Source of the DNA: an uncultured Gammaproteobacteria bacterium | GTDB lineage: Bacteria; Patescibacteriota; Microgenomatia; Levybacterales; GWA1-39-11 | Assembly (NCBI GenBank): GCA_964427615.1 | Contig: CAYRUR010000002.1 | Location: 81,847-145,846, forward strand | Direction of reading: 5' to 3' | Length of the DNA: 64,000 bases | Shown: positions 11,920 through 27,720 of the stretch, piece by piece | Numbering within the stretch: position 1 is the stretch's first letter | Layout of the letters: every line of letters begins with the position of its first letter | The notes under the pieces: generated by a model | Seen by the model: the letters and a program-made list of their open reading frames with translations, nothing else | Database searches by the model: none | What the model was told of the DNA's origin: nothing | Made by a program: the position numbers and the translations under genes

Positions 11920-11928
11920 GAAAATAAA

Positions 11929-11954
11929 GTTCTTAGCATTTCTTATTCTAAGAG
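11929..11954. terminator. weak AT-rich hairpin (gttcttag-11 nt loop-ctaagag) between convergent genes
   Basis: inverted repeat read from sequence; short stem. Confidence 0.25.
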
Positions 11955-11967
11955 TGTCTCCTGTTAT

Positions 11968-12423
11968 TTATATTATATTGTATTCCTGTCTTGAGTTGTC
12001 TGGAAAGTTAACTGCATCATAAAGAACAAATTGAGTTGGTTTCATTTTATAAAAAAGATGAGGATGCTCTTTTAAGTTCATTAACTCAATAATTTTTTCT
12101 TTAGGAAATATTTTACTTTCATACAATGAAATTACTTTTTCAATATCTTTTTTGTCAGTAAGTAACTCTGCCACTCCTTGCACTTGCAATCCTCTTGGTA
12201 CATCATCTGGCGTATGAGGGAGAACTATAGCTGCTGCAACTTTTTGATTTTTTATTATCTCATCTGAATGTCTTCTCTTGGTTGAAGAAAACCAATAGAG
12301 GTTTAGATCAGAATCTGAGACAAACCACACACTACAAATCCAGGGTTGATTATTTATAGCAGTAGCAAGCTGCATGAGCGTTGCTTCCTTTAGATAGTTT
12401 TCAATTAACTTTCTTAAATTCAT
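11968..12423 (-). CDS. pyridoxamine 5-prime-phosphate oxidase-like FMN-binding split-barrel protein
   Basis: 151 aa, general PNPOx-like pattern; family-level call only. Confidence 0.5.
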   Translation of the reverse strand: MNLRKLIENYLKEATLMQLATAINNQPWICSVWFVSDSDLNLYWFSSTKRRHSDEIIKNQKVAAAIVLPHTPDDVPRGLQVQGVAELLTDKKDIEKVISLYESKIFPKEKIIELMNLKEHPHLFYKMKPTQFVLYDAVNFPDNSRQEYNII

Positions 12424-12564
12424 TTTACCCTAATGATGATGGTGATATATAAATTATCTTTCTTGCTTTTTGGGCATTTTCATCTTCCATGTAATCTGAT
12501 TATAACACTGTGTATATTGCTTAAAAAGAGATTTTACAGGAGATCCAAATAGGTAGTTTATTAG

Positions 12565-13524
12565 TCAAGTAAATGCGGGGAGGATTTCTTTTTGGTAGAA
12601 CTTAAAAAACTTTTCTTGGCTCTCCCAGCTCCCCACTTGATGCACATAAAGATAATCATACCCTGCATCAAAAAATTGCTGTATGGCTTGGATATGTTCT
12701 TCTTTATTAGGTCCCAAAGGCATGGTTTCAGGAAGATCTTCAATCGTAAGCTTTTCTACTGCAGCTTCAAAGTGCTTCGGAGAAGGAAGATCTGAACCCA
12801 AAGATCCACCCAGCATACCAGTAGGCCACTGCTCAAATACCATTTGTTTTGCCCGAGATCTATCCTCATCATAACAAACCTTTATCTGTCCGTATTTTGG
12901 TTTTCCTTTACCACCACTTTCTTCAAACGCTTCTATGAGCTTTCTACTAGGTTTGGTCGCAATAATACCATCAGCATACTCACCTGCAAGACGTGCAGAC
13001 CGACTAGTTGATACTGCCAAAAGGATAGGTACAGGATTTTTGGGAAGAGTAAACAGTTTGGCTTGCTCTACCGCATAATACTCACCAAAGTAGTCTACAT
13101 AATCACCAGTAAAAAGAGCTTTTATAATATTTATTGCTTCCATCATCATTTCCCGACGAATTTCAGGTCTTGGCCAGCCATATCCTACTATGTGCTCATT
13201 TAAATTTTCTCCTGTCCCAAGTCCTAGCATAAATCTTCCTTCCATGACTTGCCCACACGTTGCTGCTGCTTGCGCTATGGTGGTAGGATGTATGCGAATA
13301 AGCGGACAAGTAACCGCAGTACCTACTGCAAGGTTTTTTGTCTCCTGTGAAATACCACCTAGTGTTGTCCAAACAAACGGGCTTTCACCTTGTTTTGCAA
13401 TCCAGGGATGAAAGTGATCAGAAATAAAAGCAAAAGAAAATCCAACCTCTTCTGCTCTTTTGGCAAGGTTGATCAATGTTTGCGTATCATGTTCTTCACT
13501 TGATAGTGCATACCCCAATCTCAT
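12565..13524 (-). CDS. LLM-class (luciferase-like) flavin/F420-dependent oxidoreductase
   Basis: 319 aa TIM-barrel LLM signature (N-terminal RLGY...FISDHFHPW). Confidence 0.65.
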   Translation of the reverse strand: MRLGYALSSEEHDTQTLINLAKRAEEVGFSFAFISDHFHPWIAKQGESPFVWTTLGGISQETKNLAVGTAVTCPLIRIHPTTIAQAAATCGQVMEGRFMLGLGTGENLNEHIVGYGWPRPEIRREMMMEAINIIKALFTGDYVDYFGEYYAVEQAKLFTLPKNPVPILLAVSTSRSARLAGEYADGIIATKPSRKLIEAFEESGGKGKPKYGQIKVCYDEDRSRAKQMVFEQWPTGMLGGSLGSDLPSPKHFEAAVEKLTIEDLPETMPLGPNKEEHIQAIQQFFDAGYDYLYVHQVGSWESQEKFFKFYQKEILPAFT

Positions 13525-13535
13525 ATGTATCGTTC

Positions 13536-13943
13536 CTACTCAAAACCCATTTGAGCATAATGCAAAGGAGTAATACTTACGACTACCCGATTTTCCTTGT
13601 GTTCTGGATCTCCTGGATATGGTGATACTCCTGCGTAACGCTGACTTAAATGGTCTATTAACTCATGTCCTCCTTCTTTACTCATACTTGCTCTACCCTG
13701 TACTTGGATGTACTGATAGGGGTTTTCTTGATCATAAATCACAAAAGTAACTCGAGGATCACGCACCATATTTTTGTATTTTGCTCTTTCTATGGTGATA
13801 CTCACTTTAAAAACACCATCACCGTATTCAAACCATACTGGAGACATTTGAATAGAACCATCTTTACGTAATGTTGCCAACACCATAAAATTTGGCTTTT
13901 TTAAAAACTCAGTAATTTCAGGAGGAAATTTCCCTGCATCCAT
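13536..13943 (-). CDS. PPOX-class F420/FMN-binding split-barrel protein
   Basis: 135 aa; PPOX-class pattern (FMVLATLRKDGS...). Confidence 0.55.
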   Translation of the reverse strand: MDAGKFPPEITEFLKKPNFMVLATLRKDGSIQMSPVWFEYGDGVFKVSITIERAKYKNMVRDPRVTFVIYDQENPYQYIQVQGRASMSKEGGHELIDHLSQRYAGVSPYPGDPEHKENRVVVSITPLHYAQMGFE

Positions 13944-14056
13944 ACTTGTAAAATATCAGTCTAAAACGTAGACCTTACTATTGCATAAAAATAGCGTATG
14001 GAAACAGTAAAGATTACTTTAGTTGCCAGTAATCTTTATCTAGTCAGAAGTATTTA

Positions 14057-14731
14057 TTACACAGAAGTCAGCTGATGCGACATTTTGTTCTTTTTTGTTG
14101 CCATATAGCCTTTATTGACTTCATTTGGAGTAATTTCTAAGGGGACTCGTTCCAAAACTTCTATGCCATATTCACTCAGTTGTTGTATTTTGTTAGGATT
14201 ATTAGTTAATAATCGTATCTTTTCTACTCCTAAATCCTGGAGGATATCCTTTGCTACTTTATAATCACGAGCATCTATAGGAAGACCTAGCATTTCATTT
14301 GCTTCTACCGTATCAAACCCTTTTTCTTGTAAAGCATAGGCTTTTATTTTATTGGTAAGTCCTATTCCTCTTCCCTCTTGATTAAGATACAAAACAATTC
14401 CGCTTCCATTTTCTTGTATCTGCTTCATGCTCTGATGTAATTGCTCTCCACAATCACATTTCAAAGATGAGAAAATATCACCAGTTACACAAGAGGAGTG
14501 AAGACGTACCAGCTCTGTATCTTGAATATCTCCCTTTACCAAAGCCACGTGTTCTATATTATCAGACGATTTATATACCACCATCTGAAAGGTACCAAAT
14601 GATGTTGGCAAGGTTGCCTCAGCAGTACGCACAGTATCATTTTTTTTGGATATCATTGAATTAGATGCAGACATAGTAAAAAGAGTGTTAGATGTACTAT
14701 TTATACTCTCCAAAGTCTTCTGATTTGACAA
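14057..14731 (-). CDS. ribA: GTP cyclohydrolase II
   Basis: RLHSSCVTGD...CDCGEQL zinc-site motif and NQEGRGIG; track ORF overlaps upstream gene by 35 nt, true start probably an internal Met. Confidence 0.8.
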   Translation of the reverse strand: MSNQKTLESINSTSNTLFTMSASNSMISKKNDTVRTAEATLPTSFGTFQMVVYKSSDNIEHVALVKGDIQDTELVRLHSSCVTGDIFSSLKCDCGEQLHQSMKQIQENGSGIVLYLNQEGRGIGLTNKIKAYALQEKGFDTVEANEMLGLPIDARDYKVAKDILQDLGVEKIRLLTNNPNKIQQLSEYGIEVLERVPLEITPNEVNKGYMATKKNKMSHQLTSV

Positions 14732-15422
14732 AAATTGGGTCTACATTAAGTGTATTTAAGGTTTCCACTGCGCCATTTACCATACCAGCAGGACCTGCAA
14801 GATAAAAAATAGTATTTGGAATATCTTTCAGATATTTTTGAATCATGGAAGCGTCAATATACCCAGTCTCTCCCTCCCAACCATCTGATTCTTTATCCAT
14901 CTTTGTCATGGTTGGAATAAAAGTAAAGTGAGGATTTTCCTTTGCAAGTTGATATAACTCATCTAAGAATGGAGCACCTGCAACATTTCTATTAGCATAG
15001 AACAAATAAATTTCTTGCTCTGATTTTTCGTGTGTCGCTTGACGTAGCATACCTATGAATGGTGTTATACCAATCCCTCCGGAGATAAATGCAAGCGGAC
15101 GATTAGCAACTTTTGGCAATACCATAGATCCACGAGGATCAATAACTTCAACAGCCATCCCGTCTTGCGCATTTGCCAAATTCTTTTTAAATGCGGTGTC
15201 TCTCATACGAGTAGCAACACCCAAGGTAGGTTCAAAAGGAGCTGTGATTAATGAAAGGGTTCTTTCATTACCCTCTTCATCTATTTCTTGTGGATTTGTG
15301 ATACGAACAGAGATATGTTGTCCAGCAGTGTATTCAAAACCTTCTGGCTTCTCAAAATAAAAAGCCATAGTTCCGTCAGCTACTTGTTCTTTTTGTACTA
15401 ATTTTGATGTAAATGTCGCCAT
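14697..15422 (-). CDS. FNR-like oxidoreductase (FAD-binding FR-type plus NAD(P)-binding domain)
   Basis: 241 aa; SGGIGITP nucleotide-binding motif, RxYS-like FAD site. Confidence 0.65.
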   Translation of the reverse strand: MATFTSKLVQKEQVADGTMAFYFEKPEGFEYTAGQHISVRITNPQEIDEEGNERTLSLITAPFEPTLGVATRMRDTAFKKNLANAQDGMAVEVIDPRGSMVLPKVANRPLAFISGGIGITPFIGMLRQATHEKSEQEIYLFYANRNVAGAPFLDELYQLAKENPHFTFIPTMTKMDKESDGWEGETGYIDASMIQKYLKDIPNTIFYLAGPAGMVNGAVETLNTLNVDPIFVKSEDFGEYK

Positions 15423-15428
15423 GATTAA

Positions 15429-15761
15429 TTATTTTTCTTGTTCTCCCTCAATCATTTTTACGATTGAGTTTACTAATGTATCATCAGTCTTAACTTTGTA
15501 ATATACAATCTGCCCTTTTTTCTCTCGAGTAACCAAACCTGATTGCTCCAGTACTTTTAATTGTTGAGAAGTTGCTGGCATGGTCATACCCATAACATGA
15601 GCGATGTCTGTAACTTTCACATCTTCTCCATGCGTAACCATCAACAACCTAAACATCCTACATCGTGTTGGATCACTTACTGCATTAAAAATAACAGGTA
15701 ATCGGTCTTCATCAGACACAATTGCTTTTTTTATTTTTTTAATTTGCGTATCAGTCAGCAC
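15429..15761 (-). CDS. ArsR/SmtB-family HTH transcriptional regulator (GTG start)
   Basis: 110 aa winged HTH; first gene of ArsR-reductase-ribA operon. Confidence 0.65.
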   Translation of the reverse strand: MLTDTQIKKIKKAIVSDEDRLPVIFNAVSDPTRCRMFRLLMVTHGEDVKVTDIAHVMGMTMPATSQQLKVLEQSGLVTREKKGQIVYYKVKTDDTLVNSIVKMIEGEQEK

Positions 15762-15772
15762 GATATTTTATT

Positions 15773-15792
15773 AGTTGCTTATTTAAGCAACT
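15773..15792. promoter_or_regulatory. perfect 9-2-9 palindrome AGTTGCTTA-tt-TAAGCAACT 12 nt upstream of the ArsR-family gene: candidate autoregulatory operator
   Basis: read directly from sequence. Confidence 0.55.
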
Positions 15793-15925
15793 GCTTAAGT
15801 ATAGTATGCCAAAGGCAGTTTGTCAAGTACTTATTGCCATCTAATTATTTGTTCTCTCAAAATTGATATTGTGGTTATTGCAGGGAAAATCTATGAAGGT
15901 TAATAAAAGCAACTCACCTCAGTAG

Positions 15926-16411
15926 TTATGTTTTGTCAGAGGATTCATTCTCATCATCTTTTCTTTGTTGTTCTAGTAAACTAAAATCTGGTGCTTGGCG
16001 TGATAGCGCTACTGGTGGATGTTTTTCCAGGTAATGAGCAAATCTTTGATCATCTCCTTCCTCAATTTCAGGAAAACGAGTAAATATTTCTTGTCTAATA
16101 ATCTGCTGATTAAGATAATAAAAAAGTTCTTCCCACGTATCTACCGGCTCTAGTTCTAACTGAGAAGGGGTAACAGAGGTCTGTTCAAGTAAAGCATTAA
16201 AAGTATCTCGTGGAGAGGTCTTTAGTGTTTCTAACGCCTCATACGTAGCACCATAAGTACTGTACACACATTCTTCAGGCCCATAAGGCGTCTCCACTAC
16301 TTTTATTTCTTTTTCCTTCCATCGCTTCACAGCGTTTTCCACAAGTCGGTCTAAAAGACGTTTTTCTTGTTCAGAATTTTCTGGGTTTTCCCGATTTTCA
16401 ATTCCTCCCAT
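15926..16411 (-). CDS. hypothetical acidic protein
   Basis: 161-aa ORF, no recognisable motif. Confidence 0.4.
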   Translation of the reverse strand: MGGIENRENPENSEQEKRLLDRLVENAVKRWKEKEIKVVETPYGPEECVYSTYGATYEALETLKTSPRDTFNALLEQTSVTPSQLELEPVDTWEELFYYLNQQIIRQEIFTRFPEIEEGDDQRFAHYLEKHPPVALSRQAPDFSLLEQQRKDDENESSDKT

Positions 16412-16480
16412 GAGAAAACCTTATAACACAAGAATATGACAAATATGTAAGAATAAAAAAGAAAATTGTTTCAATACTTA

Positions 16481-17050
16481 CTAAGGCATAGAAGAAGGAG
16501 ATGCGGAAGGAATATTACTTGGAAGGTTTTGAGGTATATTTTTCACCTTATCATTGAACTGCTCAGACATATCAGTAAAAGTTACATCGTTTGGTACTTG
16601 TAGTAGGCTTTCATCAAAATGTTCGTTTCGGCAATTATTATCTTTTGAGGCAACCATCTCATCTACCTTTTCTGGGGAAAAAGGTTGTTGTGTATCTCCC
16701 AACGCTTTTTTATTTTCTTCAGTCAATGTAAAAATAAACCCTTTTTTTGTAGCAGGATCCCAATGATAGGAAGTATTACCTTTAACAATGGTTGCTGTGC
16801 TACTCTCCTCAGCTATTCCATTTACTCTTGCTTGTCCTTTTAAAATGTAGGCTGTGGTACGGAAATTAGCATCCTGATATTCACAAATAATATGCTCATT
16901 TACATCAACATTGATTGCCTTTGAAGTGGACTGTTCTTTATGAGAACTACTACTCTTTGGGTCGTTTTTTGACAAGAAGAAAAATCCTGCAGCAGCAACA
17001 ACAATAATTACGATAACTCCTATAATTATTTTTAGCATTGTAACTATCAT
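16481..17050 (-). CDS. hypothetical membrane-anchored protein (N-terminal TM helix)
   Basis: 189-aa ORF. Confidence 0.45.
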   Translation of the reverse strand: MIVTMLKIIIGVIVIIVVAAAGFFFLSKNDPKSSSSHKEQSTSKAINVDVNEHIICEYQDANFRTTAYILKGQARVNGIAEESSTATIVKGNTSYHWDPATKKGFIFTLTEENKKALGDTQQPFSPEKVDEMVASKDNNCRNEHFDESLLQVPNDVTFTDMSEQFNDKVKNIPQNLPSNIPSASPSSMP

Positions 17051-17080
17051 AACACAAGAATTAGGACAAAGAAAATACAG

Positions 17081-17743
17081 TTATCCCTCTATCGTTAAAG
17101 TATGTCCGTAGTCTTTCAGCCATTTGATTTGTTGTTTGTATGAAGGATTGTAATTTCTTACCTTCATCCAGAAAAATTGATTATGATTTTTTTCCATTGT
17201 ATGAGCTAACTCATGAATAACAACGTATCTGATAACAAGAAGCGGAGCCATAACAAGACGCCAATTAAATTGAAGTCTATTATCATGCGTACAAGATCCC
17301 CATTTTGATTTGGTGTCTGAAAAGGAAATATTGGTAACACTGGTATTCATTTCTGCTGCGTATTTCTCTACCTGTCTTGTAATAATTTCTTTTGCCTGCT
17401 TTATATACCACGCCGTTAATTCTTTTTCTTTACGAAAAAGAAGTGCTTGAGGAAATAGCAATTTTTCTTTTTCTACTGTCATATGGAGATAATTACCAGG
17501 CTGCAAGGTAAGAGTCTGGCCTAAAAAAAGATACTCTCCTTCTTTTCTTGCCTGCACTACCCTCTTTTTCATCTTTGCTAGATGCTTTTCTATCCAGTCT
17601 TGGCGTTCTTTGATAAAAGTATTTATTTGTTTTTCGCTTACATATTGTGGAGCTTTTAAGATAAGGGATCCGTCAGGCTCTATACGCAAAGAAATCGTTC
17701 TTCTGTCTGATCTAATAATAGTTACTTCAGAGATCTGCAGCAT
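17081..17743 (-). CDS. YgjP-like metal-dependent hydrolase (DUF45, HEXXH)
   Basis: 220 aa with VVIHELAHTMEKNH zinc-binding motif. Confidence 0.65.
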   Translation of the reverse strand: MLQISEVTIIRSDRRTISLRIEPDGSLILKAPQYVSEKQINTFIKERQDWIEKHLAKMKKRVVQARKEGEYLFLGQTLTLQPGNYLHMTVEKEKLLFPQALLFRKEKELTAWYIKQAKEIITRQVEKYAAEMNTSVTNISFSDTKSKWGSCTHDNRLQFNWRLVMAPLLVIRYVVIHELAHTMEKNHNQFFWMKVRNYNPSYKQQIKWLKDYGHTLTIEG

Positions 17744-17840
17744 AAAGGAATTCTATACTACCATATCTTTTGAAAAAGAGGGAAATCTAAAGCTCACGTT
17801 TTAAGAAAAGAAACTAAGACAATCAAAAGTGGATGAGAGA

Positions 17841-18458
17841 TTAACTTTTTTTCTCTTTTTCTCCCTTACTTAACTCAACTATTTGGCGAATAGGCGCATA
17901 CAAGGTAATAAACCATTTCCTCAGCAACTCCCACAATGGATCATCTTCCTTAACATCCCCTCGTCGTATATACCGTAGACAATTAATAGTTATCGTCTCA
18001 ATCACTGCCCACTGCATTCTTACTTGCTCATCATTTTTGAATTCTTTCCATTTTTTTGACTCAAAAAGTGCAGTTTTTAAATTATCTCTATATTCCTTAA
18101 AACGCATATCAATCAATATCTCCCACTGCTTTATATATTTTTCCTCCACCCCCGCATCAGAAAAAAGCGTCAAAAAGCCAACTACTACCTCTTTTTGCAA
18201 AAGTGAAAGAACAACTTTGTGTTCTTTTTCCCCAGTATCAATTGCGTTATCCACTTCTAAAATAAAAAGTCCGAGTACTGAGACTTCCAGTTCATTAAAT
18301 ATCCGGTCTTGCTCTACTTGATTCAAATTCTGAAACTCAACATACATTCGAAAATCTTTTCTTTGCCAGAATTCAAAAGCAGAGTTTGCTGCCATTTGAG
18401 CAAGATGTTTGCCCGCTTTACTCATCATCTTCTGTATATGGTCTTGTTGATTCTTCAT
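17841..18458 (-). CDS. hypothetical protein
   Basis: 205-aa ORF. Confidence 0.4.
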   Translation of the reverse strand: MKNQQDHIQKMMSKAGKHLAQMAANSAFEFWQRKDFRMYVEFQNLNQVEQDRIFNELEVSVLGLFILEVDNAIDTGEKEHKVVLSLLQKEVVVGFLTLFSDAGVEEKYIKQWEILIDMRFKEYRDNLKTALFESKKWKEFKNDEQVRMQWAVIETITINCLRYIRRGDVKEDDPLWELLRKWFITLYAPIRQIVELSKGEKEKKS

Positions 18459-18678
18459 AGATAGAATTAAATGTTACTCTTTATTATATACATTCTTTTA
18501 TTGTTTTCTATTCTATAATCCACTCCTATCCCAAGGTTATAACATTGTTATAATACACGTAAATGTTTGTCAATCCTCTCATTTTCAACGAAACACAACT
18601 TACTCAACTCTTCTTATGCTAAATTGCTATACTCTATCCCTTGACTTCGCTTATACAAAAACGGTAGTATAGAAACCT

Positions 18679-19242
18679 ATGGCAAAAGCAGATGAGCAAA
18701 TAACTTCCCCAGAGATGTGTCCTAAGTGTCAAAGCCCACTAGGAGAAATTCAAACCACAAAAACCGGCCGAAAATTACAACGATGTTCTACTGGCTCCTG
18801 GGATGCAGAGGCAAAGAAAAATGTGGGATGCGACTATGTGAAATGGCTTGAAATGGAACCACAAGAACTGGATGAAAAGTGTCCAAAATGTTCTGCACCG
18901 TTAGTATTGGCATTTACCCGATTCGGGAAGAAAATGAAAAAATGCTCTACTTCCTCTTGGGACAAAGAAGCCAAAAAAGCAATAGGTTGTGATTATGTCG
19001 AGTGGATCAATGGTACTACAGAAGAACTTGATGAAGAATGTCCTGAATGCGGAGCAAAACTCGTCCTCTACACCACTGCCAACGGCAAACGCATGAAAAA
19101 ATGCAGCACTGCAGGATGGGATAGACAAGCCAAAAAAGCTACTGGATGTCCGTATGTTTATTGGTTCAAGCCTGGTGAATATGAAGTAACCTACGATAGC
19201 GGAGGAGAAGAATTCTTACCCCCAGAACCTGCTGAAGCATAG
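18679..19242 (+). CDS. tandem triple zinc-ribbon protein (three ~57-aa repeats, each CxxC-x17-C-x14-C; topoisomerase-type C4 finger-like)
   Basis: repeats CPKCQSPL...RCSTGSWDAEAKKNVGCDYVKW / CPKCSAPL...KCSTSSWDKEAKKAIGCDYVEW / CPECGAKL...KCSTAGWDRQAKKATGCPYVYW. Confidence 0.7.
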   Translation: MAKADEQITSPEMCPKCQSPLGEIQTTKTGRKLQRCSTGSWDAEAKKNVGCDYVKWLEMEPQELDEKCPKCSAPLVLAFTRFGKKMKKCSTSSWDKEAKKAIGCDYVEWINGTTEELDEECPECGAKLVLYTTANGKRMKKCSTAGWDRQAKKATGCPYVYWFKPGEYEVTYDSGGEEFLPPEPAEA

Positions 19243-19620
19243 TATCCTCTATTTAAAATCCTAAGCACCACATTAGTATTAAGAGTTAAGAAGTAAGAAT
19301 TAAGTGTTTACTTAAAATTCTAAGCACTAAATCCTAAACCTTATTGTCATCACGAAGAAACGCTAATGGCTGTGGCGATCCCTGTTCATAAGGGGATTAC
19401 TTCGCTAACACTCGCAATGACGTCTGTTTAATAGTTTTCCCTAGACTCTAACCGCTATACGCTAATCGCTTATACATAGTTCTTGCCCTTTGTTCTCTGC
19501 TTACTGATTACTGTTTTCTTTTATTCATGAATCTCTCTTCGCTTTATAAACTTTATGAACTTTACAAACTTTCTACTCACCTCAAACTCGTTAACCCTTT
19601 AACTCGCAACCTATTAGCTT
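19243..19620. repeat. composite intergenic repeat element A (shares ~175 nt of colinear blocks with 38611-38770 plus shuffled short modules)
   Basis: block gattacttcgctaacactcgcaatgacgtctgttt at 19395-19429 vs 38611-38645 (32/35); catgaatct...gctttataaacttta in both. Confidence 0.7.
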
Positions 19621-19623
19621 ACT

Positions 19624-20037
19624 CTACATCTCCTGAGAAGCTTGTCCAACTGTCTGACTTTTACTAATATCCTCAAGCATTCTTTTGACTTCCTCTACCA
19701 TCTGATCAGGAGTGTATTGTGCTTTCATAAGATATCCGTGCGCTCCTAAGGTAAATGCTTCTTTAATAACTGCATCTTGAGATAAATTGGTAAGCATAAT
19801 CACCGGTATAGTTTTTGTGATTGCATCACTTTTAAGTGTTTTTAGAATTTCTATTCCATCCATATCAGGCAACATGATATCCAAAAGAATAAGATCGTAA
19901 GGATTCTTTTTGGCTTCTGCCAAACCTTCATTTCCCATTGCAGATACATCTACAGTAAATCCTGCTAATTCTAGTTGCCTTTTGTATAAGAAACTGAGAG
20001 GCCCTTGGTCTTCAAAAATTAAAATTCTCTTATTCAT
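19624..20037 (-). CDS. response regulator, receiver domain only
   Basis: 137 aa; DD pair, phospho-accepting D in LLDIMLPDMDG, conserved K. Confidence 0.8.
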   Translation of the reverse strand: MNKRILIFEDQGPLSFLYKRQLELAGFTVDVSAMGNEGLAEAKKNPYDLILLDIMLPDMDGIEILKTLKSDAITKTIPVIMLTNLSQDAVIKEAFTLGAHGYLMKAQYTPDQMVEEVKRMLEDISKSQTVGQASQEM

Positions 20038-20116
20038 ATAATTATTGTACTATTAAGCTTATATAGTATTACACGTTTGTGCTTTTCCTGCAATAGCTCT
20101 CAAGAAAAAAAAGGAA

Positions 20117-22375
20117 TTACCCTTTATCAACTGGTAATGAGAAACTAAATACTGATCCTTTTCCTTCTTCTGATTCCACCCAGATTTTTCCACCATGCAT
20201 CTCAACAATTGATTTTGAGATATAAAGACCCATTCCTGTTCCATTTGTCCCTTGTTCTAAATTCTTCTTTACCCTGAAAAATTTCGTGAATAAATGCTCA
20301 ATATCTTTTTGTGCTATACCTTTTCCAGTATCTTTTACATGAGTTATTACCTGTCCGTCCTTTTGCTCAATGGTAACAGTGATAGATCCACCCTGTGGAG
20401 TGTAATTAATTGCATTTGAAAGGAGATTTGATATAACTTCAGTAATACGCATCGTGTCAACAGAAAGTGATGGTACTGGCTCACTAGGCTCAACAAAAGT
20501 AAGTTGTATCTGCTTTTCCTGTGCACTAATTTTTACGGTATCAACCGTTTTGTTTACTAAAACTATCCAGTCTGTAGGTTGTTTTGAAATAGTAAATACG
20601 CCCTGCTCTATTTTACTCATATTTAGTAGATTCTGAATAAGAGCCATAAGTTGGTCAGAAGCAATATTGATTTGGTCAAGGAACATCTTTTGCTCATCTG
20701 AGAATTTCCCTTCATTTTCTTTCATAAAAATAGAAAGATATCCACGGATAGACGTAAGAGGCGTACGCAATTCATGAGCAGCCATAGATACAAAATCCAG
20801 TTTCATTTTTTCCAGTTCTTGTTCTTGCGTAACATCATGCAAAACAAGAATACAACTCAAATTTACGCTTCTCCCCTCTTTAATTTGCCCAGCAACAACA
20901 TGCACAAATGCCTTTTTAACACTAGTGGTAAGAGCCAAATTTTCTTTACGAAATACTGCACCTTCAGATGAGGAATCGTTAATAGGACTGTACGTTGCAG
21001 AGGGAATCTCTGTATTACCATCATAGAGCTTGAACACTTCATCTATTCGCTTCCCTATCACCTGTTCTGCTGAAAACCCGGTAACTATTTGTGCAGCTTT
21101 ATTAAAAATAACAATCTTTCTCTCAAAATCAACGCCAATTACCGCATCAGCAATACTGGAAATAGCCACTGCCATTTTATTTCGTTCTGCATTAATAACA
21201 TTTTTATCATGTTCTTGTTTTTGAAAAGCCTGCGCAAGATCAGCTGCCATTTTATTAAAAGTATTTGCCAATTCTTCAATTTCATCACCAGTTTTAATAG
21301 TTAACTGTTGATTAAAGTTGCCTTGACCCAACAAACGGCTACCCTGCTGCAACTCTTCGATAGGCTCTACAATTTTGCTAGAGATAAAAAGACCTGCCAA
21401 GCTAATAATAGAAAGCGTTATGATAAACAAAATAATAGAAAATATGCCTGCACGGTTAATTGCTGCCAACATGTCAGATACGGGGACTTGTGCAATAACA
21501 CCCCAATTGGTAAGCGGAACAGAGTTGTAGGTAGTAAGTGAGGGCTCATTTACTTCACTTGAAAGCTCTTCAACTGGTCCAGCAGTCTTTGTATTATTGG
21601 TAAGATTGGTGAGAAAGTTATGTACTACTGGAATATTTTTCATATTCCGCATATGAGAAAGATAAGATTTATCAGGATGCGTTAAAAGATTCCCTTTATC
21701 ATCCACTACATACACATATCCTGTTGTACCCATTTTTACAGCATTTATTCTTTGCCAAAGAGTATTTAACTGCACTTTCTCAACTAGTACTCCAAATACC
21801 TCACCGCTTTTGCGAGATGTACCTATGGATGAAGTTGATAAATTCTGCAGCTGCTGTGCATCTTTTGGCAATACAATGGGAACCGCAATATTTACGGATG
21901 GATTCCCTGCTTCATCAAGATACATAGGGCTGATGTATTTATTACCACCAACAAAAGTAGTAATTTTAAAAGCAGGATTATCTGATTGATCACGGAGTTC
22001 GTTCTGAGGATATATTCTATTTCTGCTAACACGAGCAATTTCTCTCCCGTTTTTATCTAACAACTGCAGCTCTTGAATATCCTGGTCTTGCAATAAAAAG
22101 TTTTGCATCTCAATAGTAGCAACTGATACATTTTTCTGTAATACTGCTTCTGTCTGTGAATGGATAATAAGGCTAATAATTTTAGTAGTTAAGAAGCTGC
22201 TAATTCTGTCTGCTGTTGCAGAAGCAGTTATTGCTACTTGATCAGAAGTAGCAATTTTAATCTCACTTTTAAAGGTCGTAAACCAAATAATATTAACGAT
22301 AAGAAGTGAGATACCTGCAAGAAGGATAAAAAAGAAAGGTAATTTAAATTTCAGTGTCGTTTTGGGCAGACGCAT
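20117..22375 (-). CDS. sensor histidine kinase (N-terminal TM + Cache-like periplasmic domain, HAMP, PAS, HisKA, HATPase)
   Basis: 752 aa; H-box MAAHELRTPLTSIRGY; G-boxes near C-terminus. Confidence 0.8.
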   Translation of the reverse strand: MRLPKTTLKFKLPFFFILLAGISLLIVNIIWFTTFKSEIKIATSDQVAITASATADRISSFLTTKIISLIIHSQTEAVLQKNVSVATIEMQNFLLQDQDIQELQLLDKNGREIARVSRNRIYPQNELRDQSDNPAFKITTFVGGNKYISPMYLDEAGNPSVNIAVPIVLPKDAQQLQNLSTSSIGTSRKSGEVFGVLVEKVQLNTLWQRINAVKMGTTGYVYVVDDKGNLLTHPDKSYLSHMRNMKNIPVVHNFLTNLTNNTKTAGPVEELSSEVNEPSLTTYNSVPLTNWGVIAQVPVSDMLAAINRAGIFSIILFIITLSIISLAGLFISSKIVEPIEELQQGSRLLGQGNFNQQLTIKTGDEIEELANTFNKMAADLAQAFQKQEHDKNVINAERNKMAVAISSIADAVIGVDFERKIVIFNKAAQIVTGFSAEQVIGKRIDEVFKLYDGNTEIPSATYSPINDSSSEGAVFRKENLALTTSVKKAFVHVVAGQIKEGRSVNLSCILVLHDVTQEQELEKMKLDFVSMAAHELRTPLTSIRGYLSIFMKENEGKFSDEQKMFLDQINIASDQLMALIQNLLNMSKIEQGVFTISKQPTDWIVLVNKTVDTVKISAQEKQIQLTFVEPSEPVPSLSVDTMRITEVISNLLSNAINYTPQGGSITVTIEQKDGQVITHVKDTGKGIAQKDIEHLFTKFFRVKKNLEQGTNGTGMGLYISKSIVEMHGGKIWVESEEGKGSVFSFSLPVDKG

Positions 22376-22446
22376 AGGTATAATTTGATTATAGCAAGCA
22401 TATTACATCTTGACTATAACCATAATATATTCTAGAGTTAATATAT

Positions 22447-23223
22447 ATGCAAAATTCTGAGCAAGATAATTCACCTCTTTCACCTAGTAACGCTCAGCCT
22501 GTCTCCACACCTCCATCAGCTGAGAATACTGTAGATTCTCAAGAAACAACTCCTACTCCTTTCCCATCTGCCAATGAGGTTCCACCTTCTGAAACACCGC
22601 CTACACCACCAACAGAACCGGTATCACCTCCTGAGAAACCTCGCCGTTCTTCCCTGTACTATTTAATAACCCTGATACTCTTTATTGTAGGTATTGCACT
22701 TGGGTTTTCCTTATTCAAACTCATGCCTGCAGAAAGTAAAAAAATAGCACCTCAGAAAGAAGCAACTGCAGATACTCTGACGCTTCCAAGCGACGCAGTA
22801 CAAATACAGGAATGTGCAAGTCACAAAGGAACACTGTATATAAGACCAACAGATATACCAGTTGGTCCTGTATACATGGTACATAAGGGAAAAGTGATAG
22901 GTCTTGAGTTTATGCTTGGGAAAGACGAATTTCTACAAGGAAAGAATTATGAGAATCTTCAAGGATTGGGCATGAAAGTAGATCATGTAAGCATCGGTCT
23001 TCTCTCACAAGGCCATGAAGGATATACAGCACCTCACTATCATGTAGATTTTTACAACGTCTCAAGAGAAATCAAAGACGCAATTACCTGTCCTACTAAC
23101 GCCAATTCCCCTACTACCCCTTCATCCTCATCAAGCGCTACCCCAAATGCTACCCCGTCCTCAACAATGACTCCATCATCCCCAAGTGGAGCAATGCAAA
23201 CAGAACCTCACATGGCCCACTAA
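22447..23223 (+). CDS. hypothetical bitopic membrane protein with Pro/Ser/Thr-rich N-terminal and C-terminal tails
   Basis: 258 aa; one TM helix (LYYLITLILFIVGIALGF). Confidence 0.45.
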   Translation: MQNSEQDNSPLSPSNAQPVSTPPSAENTVDSQETTPTPFPSANEVPPSETPPTPPTEPVSPPEKPRRSSLYYLITLILFIVGIALGFSLFKLMPAESKKIAPQKEATADTLTLPSDAVQIQECASHKGTLYIRPTDIPVGPVYMVHKGKVIGLEFMLGKDEFLQGKNYENLQGLGMKVDHVSIGLLSQGHEGYTAPHYHVDFYNVSREIKDAITCPTNANSPTTPSSSSSATPNATPSSTMTPSSPSGAMQTEPHMAH

Positions 23224-23307
23224 TAATTCCACACTTTATACTCGTGGAATAGCTTATTTATTTGACTCTTTTGTTTTGTAAAGTATAAAATACATCGTAT
23301 AACCCTT

Positions 23308-23973
23308 ATGACACAGAAACAATCCGCGCTTTTTTACATGTCCTTTTTTGCTGTCGTAAGTATGCTTCTCATGCCTCTGATTATCGGACTTATGGAGTTA
23401 TTAAATCTTCCCATAACGCTTTTCTTTGAAAATAGCAGATATGCTGTAGATAATTTTATTTTCTTCTTAAGAGTAACTACTTTTCCACTCCTTGCACTGC
23501 TTTTAATGTACAAACTTTCCATAAAAACAAAAAATCAAAACATATTTTTTTTGATAACCTTTTTACTGTTAGCAATTACGTCTTATTTTAATTTTCACAC
23601 AAAAGCTGTCTTACAAGATACAAATAATGCATTAAAACTTCTTTTTATAGGTATTCCCTTAGGTATCTACACTTCCTTTGTTCTTACCTATTTTTGGAGA
23701 AAAATAATGGTGCAAAAAGAATATGCAAAAGCACAACTATTACGTCTTCCTTTATTACTAACACTGGCTTTGCTTTTTATAGAATTGATTTCATCAATTG
23801 TTTTCTTTGATTCATTTATCCTCAGTATTTACATCATGATAGGAGAATTTTTGAAGAACAGGCAAATAGTAGACATTTTCTACCTGGACTACTATGGATT
23901 TGCAGGACTTTTCTTAAGCCTTGTCACCTCTACTTCTGCTCTGGCAATGTCTCATCCTCAGAAGAAAAAGTAA
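23308..23973 (+). CDS. polytopic membrane protein, unknown function
   Basis: 221 aa, ~6 hydrophobic helices. Confidence 0.45.
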   Translation: MTQKQSALFYMSFFAVVSMLLMPLIIGLMELLNLPITLFFENSRYAVDNFIFFLRVTTFPLLALLLMYKLSIKTKNQNIFFLITFLLLAITSYFNFHTKAVLQDTNNALKLLFIGIPLGIYTSFVLTYFWRKIMVQKEYAKAQLLRLPLLLTLALLFIELISSIVFFDSFILSIYIMIGEFLKNRQIVDIFYLDYYGFAGLFLSLVTSTSALAMSHPQKKK

Positions 23974-23988
23974 TGATCACGAAGTGTA

Positions 23989-26900
23989 CTAGAGAGAGGA
24001 GGAACGTCTTCTTACTCTCTTTTTTCTGAAGAATATGAAGAAGGATCCTACAACAATAGCAAGTAAGAAACCTGCTGCTGTCATAATGTAAGGATTACCC
24101 GATATACCTGCTGGTTTTACTTGTATGGTTAATTCCTGCTTCTTCACATCTCCATCCAAGTTAATACTTTGCTCTCCTTTAACATTCCCATAGGATATAA
24201 TGACCCGATGCTGTCCTGCTTCTACATCTTCAAAAGTAACCCAACCATCTTTATCAGTAGTACCAGTTCTGGGAGTTGAGTGCACTGTCACGCTTGCCCC
24301 TCCAACTGGTTTTTTATTTGTATCAATAACTTGAATTGTCAAATCATACGTTTTCTGATCAGAACCTATTTGTTCCTGAGGGTCTGACTGATCGGTGTTC
24401 TCCTGCTGTGTTTTACCTTGAGAGCAGGAAGTGGTTAGAATCCATCCTGGTTCTACATTATTTGATTTCTCAAGGCTTGGATATTTCTGTTTATTTTTTT
24501 CAATCAGTTCTTTATACCTATTTCCATCTCCTAATATTTTTTCTGCAATCTCCCACAATCCATCCCCTGCTTGTACCGTATATGTTTGGCAAACGTTTTT
24601 CTTTTCTTTTTCATTTCCACCAACTGGCTTTAGTTCTGAAAAGACAATAGGATTGTTACCAGCATTTACTCCTAATGTTTTAGCAGAAATTTCATTTGAC
24701 CATTCCCCGGTGGCACAACCATTCCCTGCTCTCACTCTGAAGTAATACGTTGTATTAGGACTCAAGCCTTTGACAGTATAGGTCCTCGTACCTTTTCCAC
24801 CAATATTCTCCACTCCAAATTGATATTCTCCTGACTTAGTACCATACTGCAATACATAATGATCATACGGATCTTGAGCATCGGTAAAATATAGTTCTAC
24901 AGTCTCAGCATCTTTGGCAAGAGCTGCATACAATGAAACCACTTTTTCTCCAGGAGTTAATGCAGAACAAACAGATGAGGAAGGTGAAGGTACAGTCTGA
25001 GAAGAATCAGCAGAAGGAAGTGAATCCTTTAATACGAAAGTGTGCGTAGAAAAACCCTCATCGTATGTAAAAGATAAAGATCCTCCACCATCTGTTTTTA
25101 ATTCTCTCCATAAACTATCATCACGAAAGATATAAAAGGTTTTATTGACTGGAAGATTCGAAAAAACTATGTCTACACTCTGATTTGTATCACTTGCCAT
25201 TCTCCACTTGCGATAATTATCTCTCCAATCTTCTATCGTGATATCAACATTTCCTGAAGTAACCGTAGCTGTCATATCTCTTTTTACATATTTTACTACT
25301 CTATCATGCTGGGCTGTACCTTTTAGTACGTTACCAGCACTACTTACTCGATTATAGTAATCTGTCGTTTTTGTCCAATCATTCGTGTTATCTAAATAAG
25401 CCTGGTAAATACTATTACCCCCTGTTGACTTGTCAATTAAGTATGACGATCCTATGTTATTAGGGAAAAAATAAGCTGTTGGATAAATATCATTAAGAAG
25501 TTCTAAAAGGTAATAATCTGAAAATGCAAAAGTAAAATCACTTGTACTAGAGTAAGTCAAACCATACTTATTCACAGTATCATAATCTGAATTTTTCGTC
25601 TTCATTTCTAATATAAAAAGTTCTTCTCCTCTCTTTTGCCAATTATTACGCTTTGATTGGGGGTAACTTGTATCTTGAGCCAGCTTTAATAAGTTGTAAG
25701 AGATTATTGAACTTCTCCTTTGATCTGATCTCAAATCAGTTATGGGTCTATCTGCAAGATTATCTGCTAATTTTACTAATGAATCACTAATTTTCGTTAC
25801 CAATGATTGCTGAGTAGTATCATTTTCTATTAAATCTTTAAATTCACGCAATCCATTTAATGCCCATCCTTGCCCTCCATCCCAAAAGATTGGACCGTTA
25901 ATAGTATCTGTGGCATAGTTATACCGTTGATAAAACCAGCCTTCAGGAGTTTGTAGTTTGTCAATCATTGTGTTAATCATTTTAATCGCATCACTTTTAT
26001 ATGTGTCGTTATTCAGAAGCTTCCCCATATACCAGAAAAATTGAGGCTTTCCTCCACCAGCATCAATCCAAAATTCACTTCCTGCTCCAGAACTATGAGA
26101 AAAATTATCGTAGGTTACATTATAAGCTGCACGTGAATAACTAAGAATATCTCCCATTGCATTATAAAGACTTATATCTCCTGTTTCTTCATATGCTGGT
26201 TTAATTGTTGTCCAACCAGCAAAAGTACAGTCAGTATAATTTCCCGCACCTAGAGGATAACATCGTAAATCAGAGGTTCCTGTTCTAATGGTATCTTTAG
26301 TACGTTCAGCTTGTTCGTTTCTTAATTCTGGATATCCCAACTCATCAAATACACCTCCCATAAATGCATTATCCCAATCAGCGCCTTTATAATTAAGAAT
26401 ACTTTTTCTAATCTGATTAGCAAAAACTCCACCATAATTCCCTTCTAGCACTTCAGGACGATTATGAATATAGTGAAATTCCAACATGTCTTTTACACTT
26501 CTATACTGGTCGTACTTCGGATCAAGCGTTATGCTTCCTATTGCTTGATGTGAGTTATCATTTGGATCGAAGAGTTTGAAAGTAAAACTTAATGTGACAT
26601 CTCTATTATAAGTTCGAGGAGCATGAATTGTTTTACTAAAACTACCTAGAGCGTCGGTAGTGACCGTCCACATTGGATATTTTTGTATTTTATCTACATA
26701 TACATTATTACTCCCCACCTTTAAAAATCGCCATTCAAAGCTAGGAACTCCTTTATCTTTATCAAACACCTTAGTCCATGTAACCCAACTGGAAGAACCA
26801 GTACTATCTACATCAACCGTCTGTGCATATCCACCTCCATTTGACCAGTAGATGTCAGATGCTCCTATGCGAAAATAAGGTGTTGCTGCTACTGCGTCGT

Positions 26901-27291
26901 AATAGCGTATAAAAACAAGCACATTCTCAAATTCATCATATGCATGAGAATATGACCAACCTGTTCCGAACTCTAGTGTACCTGTATACTGTTTTGCCGT
27001 CTCCCCTTGATAAGTAGTATCTGTGTAATCTTTTTCAGGACCACCATCATAGTTGTATAGATAGTAAGTATGATTAGGAATAAGACCACTGCCTGTTATC
27101 GTAATTTGCTCTCCGAGAAAAGGTGTTGTGTTACTTATTGAAAAAGATGAAGATGCAGAAACCTTAGGAATAATTATTGTAAATAGTAAAGAAAAGAATA
27201 GAGATAAGTTAAAAAGGAAAAAGAATAATCTCCTGGTATTCTGACTATAGTCTAATATAGGAGAAAAAAGCTTTCTATTAACAAATACCAT
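23989..27291 (-). CDS. large cell-surface protein (signal/anchor, ~700-aa unknown domain, FN3, LysM, CarboxypepD-reg-like beta-sandwich, C-terminal TM anchor)
   Basis: 1100 aa; FN3 motif YYFRVRAGNG; LysM YTVQAGDGLWEIAEKIL; C-terminal hydrophobic helix + RKKRVRRR. Confidence 0.6.
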   Translation of the reverse strand: MVFVNRKLFSPILDYSQNTRRLFFFLFNLSLFFSLLFTIIIPKVSASSSFSISNTTPFLGEQITITGSGLIPNHTYYLYNYDGGPEKDYTDTTYQGETAKQYTGTLEFGTGWSYSHAYDEFENVLVFIRYYDAVAATPYFRIGASDIYWSNGGGYAQTVDVDSTGSSSWVTWTKVFDKDKGVPSFEWRFLKVGSNNVYVDKIQKYPMWTVTTDALGSFSKTIHAPRTYNRDVTLSFTFKLFDPNDNSHQAIGSITLDPKYDQYRSVKDMLEFHYIHNRPEVLEGNYGGVFANQIRKSILNYKGADWDNAFMGGVFDELGYPELRNEQAERTKDTIRTGTSDLRCYPLGAGNYTDCTFAGWTTIKPAYEETGDISLYNAMGDILSYSRAAYNVTYDNFSHSSGAGSEFWIDAGGGKPQFFWYMGKLLNNDTYKSDAIKMINTMIDKLQTPEGWFYQRYNYATDTINGPIFWDGGQGWALNGLREFKDLIENDTTQQSLVTKISDSLVKLADNLADRPITDLRSDQRRSSIISYNLLKLAQDTSYPQSKRNNWQKRGEELFILEMKTKNSDYDTVNKYGLTYSSTSDFTFAFSDYYLLELLNDIYPTAYFFPNNIGSSYLIDKSTGGNSIYQAYLDNTNDWTKTTDYYNRVSSAGNVLKGTAQHDRVVKYVKRDMTATVTSGNVDITIEDWRDNYRKWRMASDTNQSVDIVFSNLPVNKTFYIFRDDSLWRELKTDGGGSLSFTYDEGFSTHTFVLKDSLPSADSSQTVPSPSSSVCSALTPGEKVVSLYAALAKDAETVELYFTDAQDPYDHYVLQYGTKSGEYQFGVENIGGKGTRTYTVKGLSPNTTYYFRVRAGNGCATGEWSNEISAKTLGVNAGNNPIVFSELKPVGGNEKEKKNVCQTYTVQAGDGLWEIAEKILGDGNRYKELIEKNKQKYPSLEKSNNVEPGWILTTSCSQGKTQQENTDQSDPQEQIGSDQKTYDLTIQVIDTNKKPVGGASVTVHSTPRTGTTDKDGWVTFEDVEAGQHRVIISYGNVKGEQSINLDGDVKKQELTIQVKPAGISGNPYIMTAAGFLLAIVVGSFFIFFRKKRVRRRSSSL

Positions 27292-27374
27292 AATTTAACC
27301 ATATCACACTTTAAATAAAAATGCTAGTTATAATCTGTAGATTATGATGATGATAAATATCAGACTAGTAGGAT

Positions 27375-27587
27375 ATGAAGACTACTGCTACTAGAATATA
27401 TTTTGGAAAACAACTAAAAATACTACGTAAGAAAAATGGATTTTCTCAAGAAGAACTAGGATTTCGAGCAGGTCTTCATAGAACTTATATAGGATCTGTT
27501 GAGCGAGGAGAACAAAATATATCAATCGATAACATTGAGAAGTTAGCAGAAGCACTTCGCATCTCCCCAAAGGAATTCTTCGAATAA
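27375..27587 (+). CDS. XRE-family HTH transcriptional regulator
   Basis: 70 aa; GFSQEELGFRAGLHRTYIGSVERGE. Confidence 0.7.
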   Translation: MKTTATRIYFGKQLKILRKKNGFSQEELGFRAGLHRTYIGSVERGEQNISIDNIEKLAEALRISPKEFFE

Positions 27588-27720
27588 CAAAATATAGATC
27601 AAATTATCAATCCTTTACAATTCTCGCTTTTCTGTGCTTTTTAAAACCCTTCTCTCATCTCTTAACAAACTCTCACGCTCCTCTACCTCCATTTTAATTC
27701 TTGAAATATACAATGTAATA

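Follow-up and report, generated by a model that had tools for sequence, protein, structure and literature searches.

Two intergenic blocks combining a CGTC-tagged REP core with heptamer-periodic DNA in a probably Patescibacteria-like genome

Introduction

Two intergenic blocks of the window, by which we mean the whole 64-kb stretch of DNA analysed here, resemble each other closely enough to raise the question of what kind of sequence they represent and how they came to be there. An earlier note on this DNA had described the two blocks, hereafter A and B, as members of a dispersed family of shuffled modules, comparing them to MITE- or REP-like elements or to small-RNA or terminator modules, and had set them apart from CRISPR arrays.

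Results

A and B are copies of one non-coding composite unit

A pattern search placed the 35-mer GATTRCTTCGCTAACACTCGCMATGACGTYTGTTT at positions 19395-19429 and 38611-38645, with 32 of 35 bases identical and a chance expectation of zero. Gapped local alignment of the DNA around these two sites delineated the following units.

19385-19575, no strand assigned: composite unit copy A (REP plus heptamer and nonamer modules), delimited by local alignment with B; Logan contigs end at 19437 and 19519
38602-38767, no strand assigned: composite unit copy B, delimited by local alignment with A; Logan contigs join at 38754-38783

The alignment comprises 133 matches and 21 mismatches (86% identity over aligned columns) interrupted by five indels of 27, 8, 4, 4 and 2 nt, its modules are colinear, and its score of 118 compares with 22 ± 3 for shuffled B. 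The sequence GCTTTATAAACTTTA... was found at 19541 and 38734, and CGCTATACGCTAAYCGCTT at 19453 and 38790, the latter lying 32 nt after the 35-nt core in A but 145 nt after it in B. All blocks named in A and B by the earlier note were recovered in place, and the differing position of its ctatacgctaa module (CGCTATACGCTAAYCGCTT) proved to be real. The units, which span 166-191 nt, are non-coding. They are rich in stops and offer no usable open reading frame through which further genomic copies could be traced. A spurious 21-residue ORF ('...SLTLAMT...') lies over A at 19366-19431.

Parts of the regions around A and B recur elsewhere in the window. TCRTTAACCCKTTA is present in exact form at 19588, 42136 and 53277. 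Blastn self-comparison matched 38576-38608 in region B to 8643-8675 (94%, inverted, 33 nt) and 19272-19305 in region A to 8564-8597 (85%, 34 nt); it further matched 38759-38794 to 53233-53263 (78%, reverse complement) and 53277-53301 to 42136-42160 (84%). A and B thereby share modules, in both orientations, with three more intergenic regions. The short modules said to recur outside A and B do so, as the three exact copies of TCRTTAACCCKTTA and the reverse-complement match at 53233-53263 illustrate, and the regions previously listed as carrying them stand, although the list missed a fifth member at 8574-8699. The recurrence of modules also holds, but the modules themselves are not arbitrary, all five regions being heptamer-periodic.

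All five regions are heptamer-periodic

TRF detected period-7 arrays in each of the five regions (8567-8599, 8641-8679, 19278-19304, 38785-38807, 42083-42136 and 53197-53221), together with periods of 8 or 9 at 19542-19572 and 38735-38767 and periods of 20-21 at 8559-8600 and 42083-42136. The regions, their identity at a lag of seven bases and their settings are as follows.

8574-8699, no strand assigned: heptamer mosaic E (TRF, blastn and lag-7 identity of 0.61), within the cyoABCD operon, between cyoB and cyoC
41909-42290, no strand assigned: heptamer mosaic C, lag-7 identity 0.45, separating divergent genes; ACTTTTG array at 42083-42136 and TCATTAACCCGTTA module
19243-19623: region A, lag-7 identity 0.40, between convergent genes for a 187-aa protein with three Zn-ribbon repeats and for a response regulator
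38570-38884: region B, lag-7 identity 0.40, between same-strand methyltransferase-like and nucleotidyltransferase-like genes
53136-53361, no strand assigned: heptamer mosaic D, lag-7 identity 0.38; AGAATTA array at 53197-53221, reverse-complement CTAAMCG module and TCGTTAACCCGTTA module

The other 18 intergenic regions of at least 100 nt were flat at ~0.30 at all lags, and a sliding 120-nt lag-7 scan of the window at a threshold of 0.45 returned the five regions plus one borderline stretch at 39961. The response regulator beside A comes after a Cache/PAS histidine kinase, and B lies downstream of a gene. The generalization that all copies sit at gene 3' ends fails for 41909-42290, between divergent genes, and for 8574-8699, inside an operon.

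The heptamer units are AT-rich and of few types (CTAAAYN/CTAAMCG, TTAAGAN/GTAAGAA, ACTTTTG/GNTTTTG and GTTCNCT/GNTTACT), and occur in either orientation; no heptamer consensus was common to all arrays. Within and around A and B, the following modules were distinguished.

19243-19345, no strand assigned: heptamer arrays upstream of REP A, TTAAGAG/TTAAGAA/GTAAGAA... and CTAAGCA/CTAAATC/CTAAACC; TRF period 7 at 19278-19304
19448-19475, no strand assigned: CTAAMCG-type module CGCTATACGCTAATCGCTT in A, with its counterpart at 38785-38808 in B
38785-38808, no strand assigned: CTAAMCG-type module in B, ACTAATC ACTAAAC GCTATAC GCTAACC, with its reverse complement at 53233-53263
19541-19575, no strand assigned: module of 8-9 nt period, (CTTTATAAA)n, in A, with its counterpart at 38734-38767 in B

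By blastn, the arrays at 19243-19345 share modules with 8564-8597 and 8650-8683. Mosaic C also contains a 12-bp perfect inverted repeat (41954-41965 / 42200-42211).

The 35-nt core of A and B is a REP with a broken stem

A profile made from 185 members of the REP family described below matched the 64-kb window exactly twice, on the minus strand in both cases.

19392-19422, minus strand: REP copy A, CGTC-ATTGC-GA-G-TGTTAG-C-GAA-GTAAT-CCC (profile E=3.6e-5)
38608-38638, minus strand: REP copy B, CGTC-ATGGC-GA-G-TGTTAG-C-GAA-GCAAT-CTC (profile E=5.1e-5)
19346-19380, plus strand: possible decayed inverted partner of REP A, T-GTC-ATCAC-GA-...-GTG-GCGAT-C (read from the sequence)

Both copies retain the CGTC tag and the AT...AT start of the stem and have the same inner hairpin segment, GTGTTAGC, a variant with a second stem of 2 bp and a loop of 4 nt; their tails are CCC (A) and CTC (B). 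In each, the 5-bp stem is altered once, in REP A on the 3' arm (GTAAT for GCAAT) and in REP B on the 5' arm (ATGGC for ATTGC). The comparison of the 35-nt block to REPs was thus well founded, since the block displays an unpaired CGTC tag, a stem starting from AT and a short C-initial tail. We filed the core as a CGTC-tagged REP on the strength of the tag, the AT stem start and the outward-tag dimers found in other genomes.

The putative partner of REP A is 14 nt away from it with the tags pointing outward and did not reach significance with the REP profile; upstream of REP B, no partner was found. REP A is thus a singleton or a decayed dimer, and REP B a singleton. No doublet hairpin formed in the window (z of -0.1/-1.1 for A and -0.1/+0.5 for B against shuffles). 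A region contains at most one REP, or possibly one decayed pair, and three of the five contain none. REP singlets have been interpreted as doublets in decay in work on REPINs (PMC3337134), and the two window REPs are in all likelihood relics in decay, having lost the ability to fold or to move.

The same REP class occurs in many phyla and in phage-like contigs

The 23-mer CTTCGCTAACACTCGCNATGACG was searched in the GTDB collection at one genome per species, yielding 24 loci spread over lineages that are not related to one another. A Legionellales MAG accounts for at least 13 of them; the others are in a Legionella MAG, Helicobacter saguini, Coriobacteriales, Dysgonamonadaceae, Bacteroidia, Alphaproteobacteria, Thermodesulfobacteriota and Chloroherpeton. 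In the Legionellales MAG, the REP heads a longer conserved unit at its 13 or more loci. Most of the GTDB loci have an inverted partner a few tens of bases upstream, and such pairs fold into a single long hairpin (z of -3.6 to -10.9 against dinucleotide shuffles). A generic pattern, GTCATTGCGAG-N(4-24)-GAAGCAATC, hit at least 120 IMG/VR contigs. The core of A and B is a member of a pan-bacterial element found in many phyla and in phage-like contigs, a point that the earlier note had missed, as it had the heptamer periodicity of the remaining modules. Identity of a 27-mer across phyla need not call for horizontal transfer, since so large a family with so short an inner hairpin may produce the same 27-mer more than once.

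The architecture of the class, drawn from ~180 copies among the IMG/VR matches listed, is (C/T)GTC-ATTGC-GA-[G...C hairpin]-GAA-GCAAT-C, or, written as an interrupted stem, CGTCATTGCGAG...GAAGCAATCCA: 5 bp, a GA/GAA internal loop and a variable second stem of 1-8 bp. ATTGC/GCAAT pairs in 197 of 199 complementary cases, with the compensatory variants ATCGC/GCGAT and ATTAC/GTAAT. Among the IMG/VR matches listed, the inner hairpins comprise 99 distinct sequences, average 2.6 consecutive pairs compared to 0.71 ± 0.09 when shuffled, and vary in pair type at every position; the occurrence of several pair types per position indicates that structure rather than sequence is conserved. GTC is preceded by T in 95 and by C in 79 of the 182 matches listed, 174 in all, and by C in all 27 genome copies. 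Nearly all copies have a tail that starts with C, the triplets CTC, CCA and CCC accounting for 69, 48 and 23 of the 182 listed IMG/VR matches and CCA for 13 of the 27 genome copies. A tag-outward inverted partner accompanies 68 of 180 copies among the IMG/VR matches listed, with a modal spacer of 22-24 nt.

The orientation of REPs relative to neighbouring genes showed no bias, the 43 singletons between co-directional genes dividing into 18 sense and 25 antisense, and informative cases were too few for strand asymmetry (G-T vs A-C) in the inner stem. The sole match in a plasmid collection was the REP core, once, on a Geminocystis plasmid; text searches of the literature with sequence strings returned unrelated primers only; and Rfam gave nothing relevant at E<=10 for an intact REP dimer. 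Several candidate associations were discarded. A small GIY-YIG nuclease gene adjoins one of ~150 loci and none of the 24 genome loci. No transposase-like ORF is present between inverted copies ~600 nt apart (loci L088 and L091). Neither a hammerhead nor a K-turn accounts for the GA/GAA loop, the core nucleotides and bulge geometry being a misfit when compared by eye with the consensus of these motifs.

The heptamer mosaic is lineage-specific

The nearest named relatives of the CoxI protein are MAGs assigned to Saccharimonadales, Doudnabacteria or Patescibacteria (69-72% identity), which makes a Patescibacteria-like organism the probable source of the window. At cyo, the window was compared with four relatives whose CoxI is 75-77% identical, L150 (GCA_964503265.1), L151, L152 and L154. 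cyoB and cyoC overlap by 4 nt in all four, whereas a 126-nt mosaic separates them in the window. The REP profile found no match in L150, L151 and L152. TRF detected 0-1 period-7 arrays in L150, L151 and L028, the latter being the locus with the closest histidine-kinase homologue (63%), at a GC content similar to that of the window. On these comparisons, the mosaic intergenic repeat is specific to the lineage of the window.

Short-read contigs break inside A and B

The window REPs and long A/B units amount to two copies in 73.5 kb, that is, the window plus a 9.5-kb extension; the latter is free of REPs, of modules like those of A and B, and of heptamer periodicity. A metagenome scan with a lineage-specific 27-mer gave 0 matches. 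Logan contigs of the same organism from SRR7082976 cover positions 443-5687, 5666-19437, 19519-38783 and 38754-54585, and one Logan contig from SRR7082966 also ends at 19519. The ends at 443, 5666/5687, 54585 and 55017 coincide with the only exact repeats of at least 30 nt in the window (435-472 / 5658-5695 and 54556-54593 / 55009-55046). The 30-mers at the breaks in A and B (19408-19437, 19519-19548 and 38754-38783) each occur just once in the window, and these breaks are likely due either to another copy outside it or to variation between strains. Contig breaks are not proof of repetition, since the Logan ends at 56775 and 22876 fall at no repeat and strain polymorphism is possible. Regions C, D and E are crossed unbroken by Logan contigs. 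Overall, the breaks inside A and B suggest further copies elsewhere, and A and B likely belong to a dispersed family rather than to a two-locus duplication.

A and B lack the hallmarks of MITEs, structured RNAs and CRISPR arrays

No inverted pairs were found in A at a seed of 7 or more, B contains only internal AT-rich palindromes, and no duplicated flank is visible at either unit; the MITE reading and the terminal-repeat and target-site checks that went with it thus find nothing in A or B to rest on. Folding of both strands of A and B showed no excess over shuffles (z of -0.4 to +1.2). No terminator-like hairpin followed by a T-run was found, and Rfam gave neither a match at gathering score over the window nor anything relevant at E<=10 on A, leaving the small-RNA or terminator reading without support. 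The exclusion of a CRISPR array was correct, no array of regularly spaced identical repeats with unique spacers being present. No transposase is encoded in the 64-kb window or its 9.5-kb extension.

Discussion

The core of A and B can be set against the superfamily of CGTC-tagged REPs surveyed by Di Nocera, De Gregorio and Rocco (2013, BMC Genomics 14:522; PMC3733652), which includes dRS3 of Neisseria and RPE-4 and RPE-6 of Rickettsia. These REPs are described as having an unpaired CGTC or TGTC tag (CCTC being tolerated), a stem that starts with AT and a 3-nt tail close to CCA. They usually form head-to-head dimers whose tags point outward, and lie for the most part outside genes, between convergent or unidirectional ones, and only occasionally within a gene. 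The survey reports them from five phyla, at 20 to thousands of copies per genome and without a dedicated transposase, describes Neisseria members that are intermingled with other repeats in intergenic mosaics, and proposes that REPs at the 3' ends of genes work at the RNA level (PMC3733652). In the four published families the stem runs unbroken over 8-9 bp and the loop measures 4-5 nt (Table 1 of the survey); the authors allow that bulged classes may have escaped them.

The class described here resembles these REPs in its unpaired tag, its A-T/T-A stem start, its C-initial tail, its presence in several phyla without an associated transposase, and its location, which is largely extragenic, between convergent or unidirectional genes, and in occasional cases intragenic. 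Head-to-head dimers with outside tags are likewise found in other genomes, although they are absent as intact pairs from the window. In contrast to the published families, the stem is interrupted by a GA/GAA loop. The fit of the tail to the published description is loose, CTC being commoner than CCA among the IMG/VR matches listed. Also unlike the REPs of the survey, the window copies are decayed singletons, and their apparently Patescibacteria-like host lies outside the five listed phyla. We place the core in the CGTC superfamily as a whole, without assigning it to one of the families CGTC-1 to CGTC-4.

Similarity to the REPIN/RAYT system (Bertels & Rainey 2011) is found in other genomes, in the form of inverted pairs with a 22-24 nt spacer and a long hairpin, and of singlets that resemble decaying remnants. 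The tag, in contrast, is CGTC and not GTAG, the window has no intact doublet, and no RAYT was found: none of the genes of the 64-kb window and its 9.5-kb extension is a RAYT (HuH/Y1) gene flanked by REPs. REPIN families are, moreover, usually lineage-specific, whereas the present REP sequence is common to several phyla.

The combination, in intergenic DNA, of a REP palindrome with short modules of variable order and orientation recalls the NIMEs of Neisseria (dRS3 plus RS units) and the BIMEs of E. coli. The window differs from both in having one REP per region and no alternating palindromic arrays, and from NIMEs in that the partner modules are heptamer-periodic tandem arrays and not RS units with palindromic bounds.

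For the arrays themselves, the closest parallel may be the STRR sequences of cyanobacteria, which Mazel et al. are said to have described in 1990 as tandem heptamers at many dispersed non-coding sites, of unknown function. STRR units contain GC. The window arrays share with STRRs the tandem 7-nt unit and an intergenic, dispersed location, but their units are AT-rich (CTAAAYN, TTAAGAN, ACTTTTG) and far more degenerate, and their host is not a cyanobacterium. The core, in sum, is a decayed single copy of a widespread and previously described kind of REP, and the remaining modules are reminiscent of cyanobacterial STRRs.

We consider that A and B are probably (at roughly 60%) a multi-copy non-coding composite repeat, namely tolerated selfish or neutral DNA in which slippage-born arrays and recombination-shuffled blocks carry REP relics. 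Two ingredients make up the repeat. The first is the CGTC-tagged REP, elsewhere often a tag-outward pair that can fold like a REPIN. The second is degenerate tandem arrays of 7 nt, in some cases 8-9 nt, which would have been born by replication slippage and may then have been shuffled among intergenic regions through recombination or gene conversion between similar arrays, with the REP relics carried along in the shuffled blocks. The blocks would be tolerated wherever spacer DNA does no harm, be it behind a convergent gene pair, between genes in tandem, in the promoter region of a divergent pair or inside the cyo operon. What the data show directly are the sequence relationships, the architecture and distribution of the REP, the heptamer periodicity, its absence from the relatives compared and the lack of hairpin, terminator or terminal-repeat features. 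The origin of the repeat, its mode of spread, its want of a cellular function and its copy number across the genome are what we infer from these patterns, the case against a function being one from absence. At 86% identity across heptamer modules whose order is conserved, A and B are more alike than old neutral arrays would be expected to be, which leaves room for recent active copying or selection.

The main rival, which we hold to be unlikely though the most serious of the alternatives, is that the A/B unit is an active non-autonomous mobile element whose REP serves as a recognition end for a transposase encoded elsewhere (RAYT/IS200-like Y1 or other) that would copy it to new intergenic sites. 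GTAG-type REPs are indeed mobilised by RAYTs (PMC3116915, PMC3337134), and the colinearity and 86% identity of A and B, the contig breaks that suggest further copies with exact matches of at least 30 nt, the 126-nt mosaic inserted at an otherwise overlapping cyoB/cyoC junction and the longer unit headed by the same REP at 13 or more loci of the Legionellales MAG are all consistent with movement. Yet A and B have no terminal inverted repeats and no target-site duplication, their REPs are solitary, have damaged stems and form no stable hairpin, neither the window nor the 9.5-kb extension encodes a transposase, the cyo insertion (E) is without a REP, and CGTC REPs are reported to lack a dedicated transposase (PMC3733652).

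More speculative, and in our estimate rather improbable, is the suggestion that the REP class may be an undescribed structured element with a conserved purine-rich loop, possibly with tandem sheared G-A pairs, that a conserved protein would recognise in single-stranded form, be it DNA or RNA, and that, together with the heptamer arrays, it may be the footprint of an active spacer-generating or copying process in a streamlined Patescibacteria-like genome.

That the heptamer arrays are functional DNA, providing phased sites for a nucleoid or regulatory protein or acting as curvature elements, with the REP being incidental, strikes us as quite improbable. Periodicity is kept over 100-380 nt in five regions despite unit variation, three heptamers make 21 bp or two helical turns (TRF periods of 20-21 also being present), and one array is in a divergent promoter region (C). 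Against such a role, the arrays share no heptamer consensus and lie in either orientation relative to transcription; they are also wanting at the cyo operon of the relatives compared, number 0-1 in the TRF-scanned loci and are missing from the adjoining 9.5 kb.

Still less probable is a role at the RNA level, in which the units would be small RNAs, stabilisers of mRNA 3' ends or terminators co-transcribed with their neighbours. The position of A between convergent genes and of B downstream of a gene would suit the published proposal that REPs act as RNA at gene 3' ends (PMC3733652), as would the G-T pair of the window's inner hairpin, which can pair only on the GTCAT strand. However, A and B show no excess folding (z of -0.4 to +1.2) and no terminator-like hairpin with a T-run, and Rfam gave no match up to E<=10. 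In A the GTCAT strand runs sense to the response-regulator operon, in B antisense to both neighbours; the orientation of singletons elsewhere is unbiased (18 sense, 25 antisense), and the genes on either side of region C diverge. That A and B are the outcome of one segmental duplication of a single intergenic region, and not members of a family, is very improbable. In its favour speak the mere two REPs and two long units in 73.5 kb, the single REP core in the plasmid collection and the empty metagenome scan. Against it, three more regions carry shared modules, in either orientation, the flanking genes are not duplicated, and contigs of two samples end at the same base in A, with breaks also in B, at 30-mers that are unique in the window.

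The reading of A and B as a tolerated composite repeat does not overturn current understanding. At the practical level, the blocks are non-coding repeats at which short-read assemblies break and from which spurious ORF calls can arise. The CGTC REP superfamily appears to reach into a Patescibacteria-like lineage and into phage-like contigs, and to take in a class whose stem is interrupted. Finally, a small, gene-dense genome can gain heptamer spacer DNA, even in an operon whose genes overlap in the sampled relatives, and the cyo case offers a clean natural setting in which to study how heptamer-periodic DNA arises.

Repeat DNA within the cyo operon, and duplications in the window

The cyoB and cyoC genes share a 4-nt overlap in four relatives (among them L150 11977-11980, L151 11971-11974 and L154 7765-7768), whereas in the window a 126-nt heptamer mosaic (8574-8699) lies between them. 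As judged by this comparison, the heptamer-mosaic repeat DNA is an insertion inside the cyo operon of this genome. A 59-nt direct repeat with 97% identity (435-493 and 5658-5716) was found to duplicate the cyoA ribosome-binding region and first 17 codons (MGKKSKIAVF...) 5.2 kb upstream. The upstream copy, in which a stop occurs in frame after 20 codons, is a gene-start fragment. The short-read assembly of the organism was broken at this repeat. The gene for a 676-aa protein, in which two CBM_4_9 domains are present, hosts a 300-nt tandem duplication (54227-54979; 79% identical, copies 453 nt apart), and the short-read assembly was likewise broken at an exact 38-nt repeat (54556-54593 and 55009-55046).

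Other repeats of the window

Region C, one of the five heptamer-periodic regions of the window, could be a separate MITE-like element, since some excess folding (z = -2.0) is seen there and in none of the other four. The arms of a perfect 12-bp inverted repeat in this region, GGTAAGGATTGG at 41954-41965 and CCAATCCTTACC at 42200-42211, lie 234 nt apart, and an imperfect palindrome of 65 nt (42052-42116) is located internally. Adjoining element A, a composite intergenic repeat unit, is the gene for a 187-aa protein (18775-19169) made up of three tandem copies of a 159-nt (53-aa) unit; every copy corresponds to a Top1-type C4 zinc ribbon, and the copies share 62-71% DNA identity. An intergenic perfect microsatellite, (GACA)4.5, was observed at 44849-44866.

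The CGTC-tagged palindromic repeat (REP) in other genomes

Perfect head-to-head REP dimers enclose a second palindrome (CAGATCG...CGATCTG) in the Legionellales MAG MHBB01 (loci L002, L005, L007, L015-L017, L022 and L025) and are followed by a conserved tract of ~50 nt (gcatgtattcctttatgtttacattgtaaactattcatgcgtaggccctg), the whole forming a composite unit of ~150 nt present at at least 13 loci; the same contigs also contain the dRS3-like GTCATTCCCGCGAAGGCGGGAATC. Head-to-tail arrangement of CGTC REPs is negligible according to published surveys; head-to-tail tandem arrays were found in a Coriobacteriales MAG (L010 1-130, period 46 nt) and in an IMG/VR contig (L075 2695-2818, period 33 nt). The Helicobacter saguini copy (L008 4487-4509) lies in frame within an 873-aa ORF (...GVDCFANTRNDATN...), an intragenic location reminiscent of that of Rickettsia RPEs. 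The only match of element A in the plasmid collection was the REP core, in a Geminocystis plasmid (NZ_AP014816.1 48290-48322; 94% over 33 nt), annotated inside a DUF1156 gene. In several phage-like contigs, a Shine-Dalgarno sequence and start codon follow the REP end by 5-20 nt (e.g. ...GAAGCAATCtcaaaaggaggaaaccATG); these loci are not independent, because some are mutually homologous.

REP upstream of a Shine-Dalgarno sequence and start codon in IMG/VR contigs (others were also found)
L032, position 7062
L035, position 2244
L065, position 6118

Heptose-pathway-like genes

Three family-9 glycosyltransferase (heptosyltransferase-like) genes, together with SIS and PfkB/cytidylyltransferase genes, are located at 58090-60519 of the window and at 11342-12376 of L155, its extension. 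This gene set looks like a heptose-sugar pathway; the named relatives closest to this genome are Patescibacteria.
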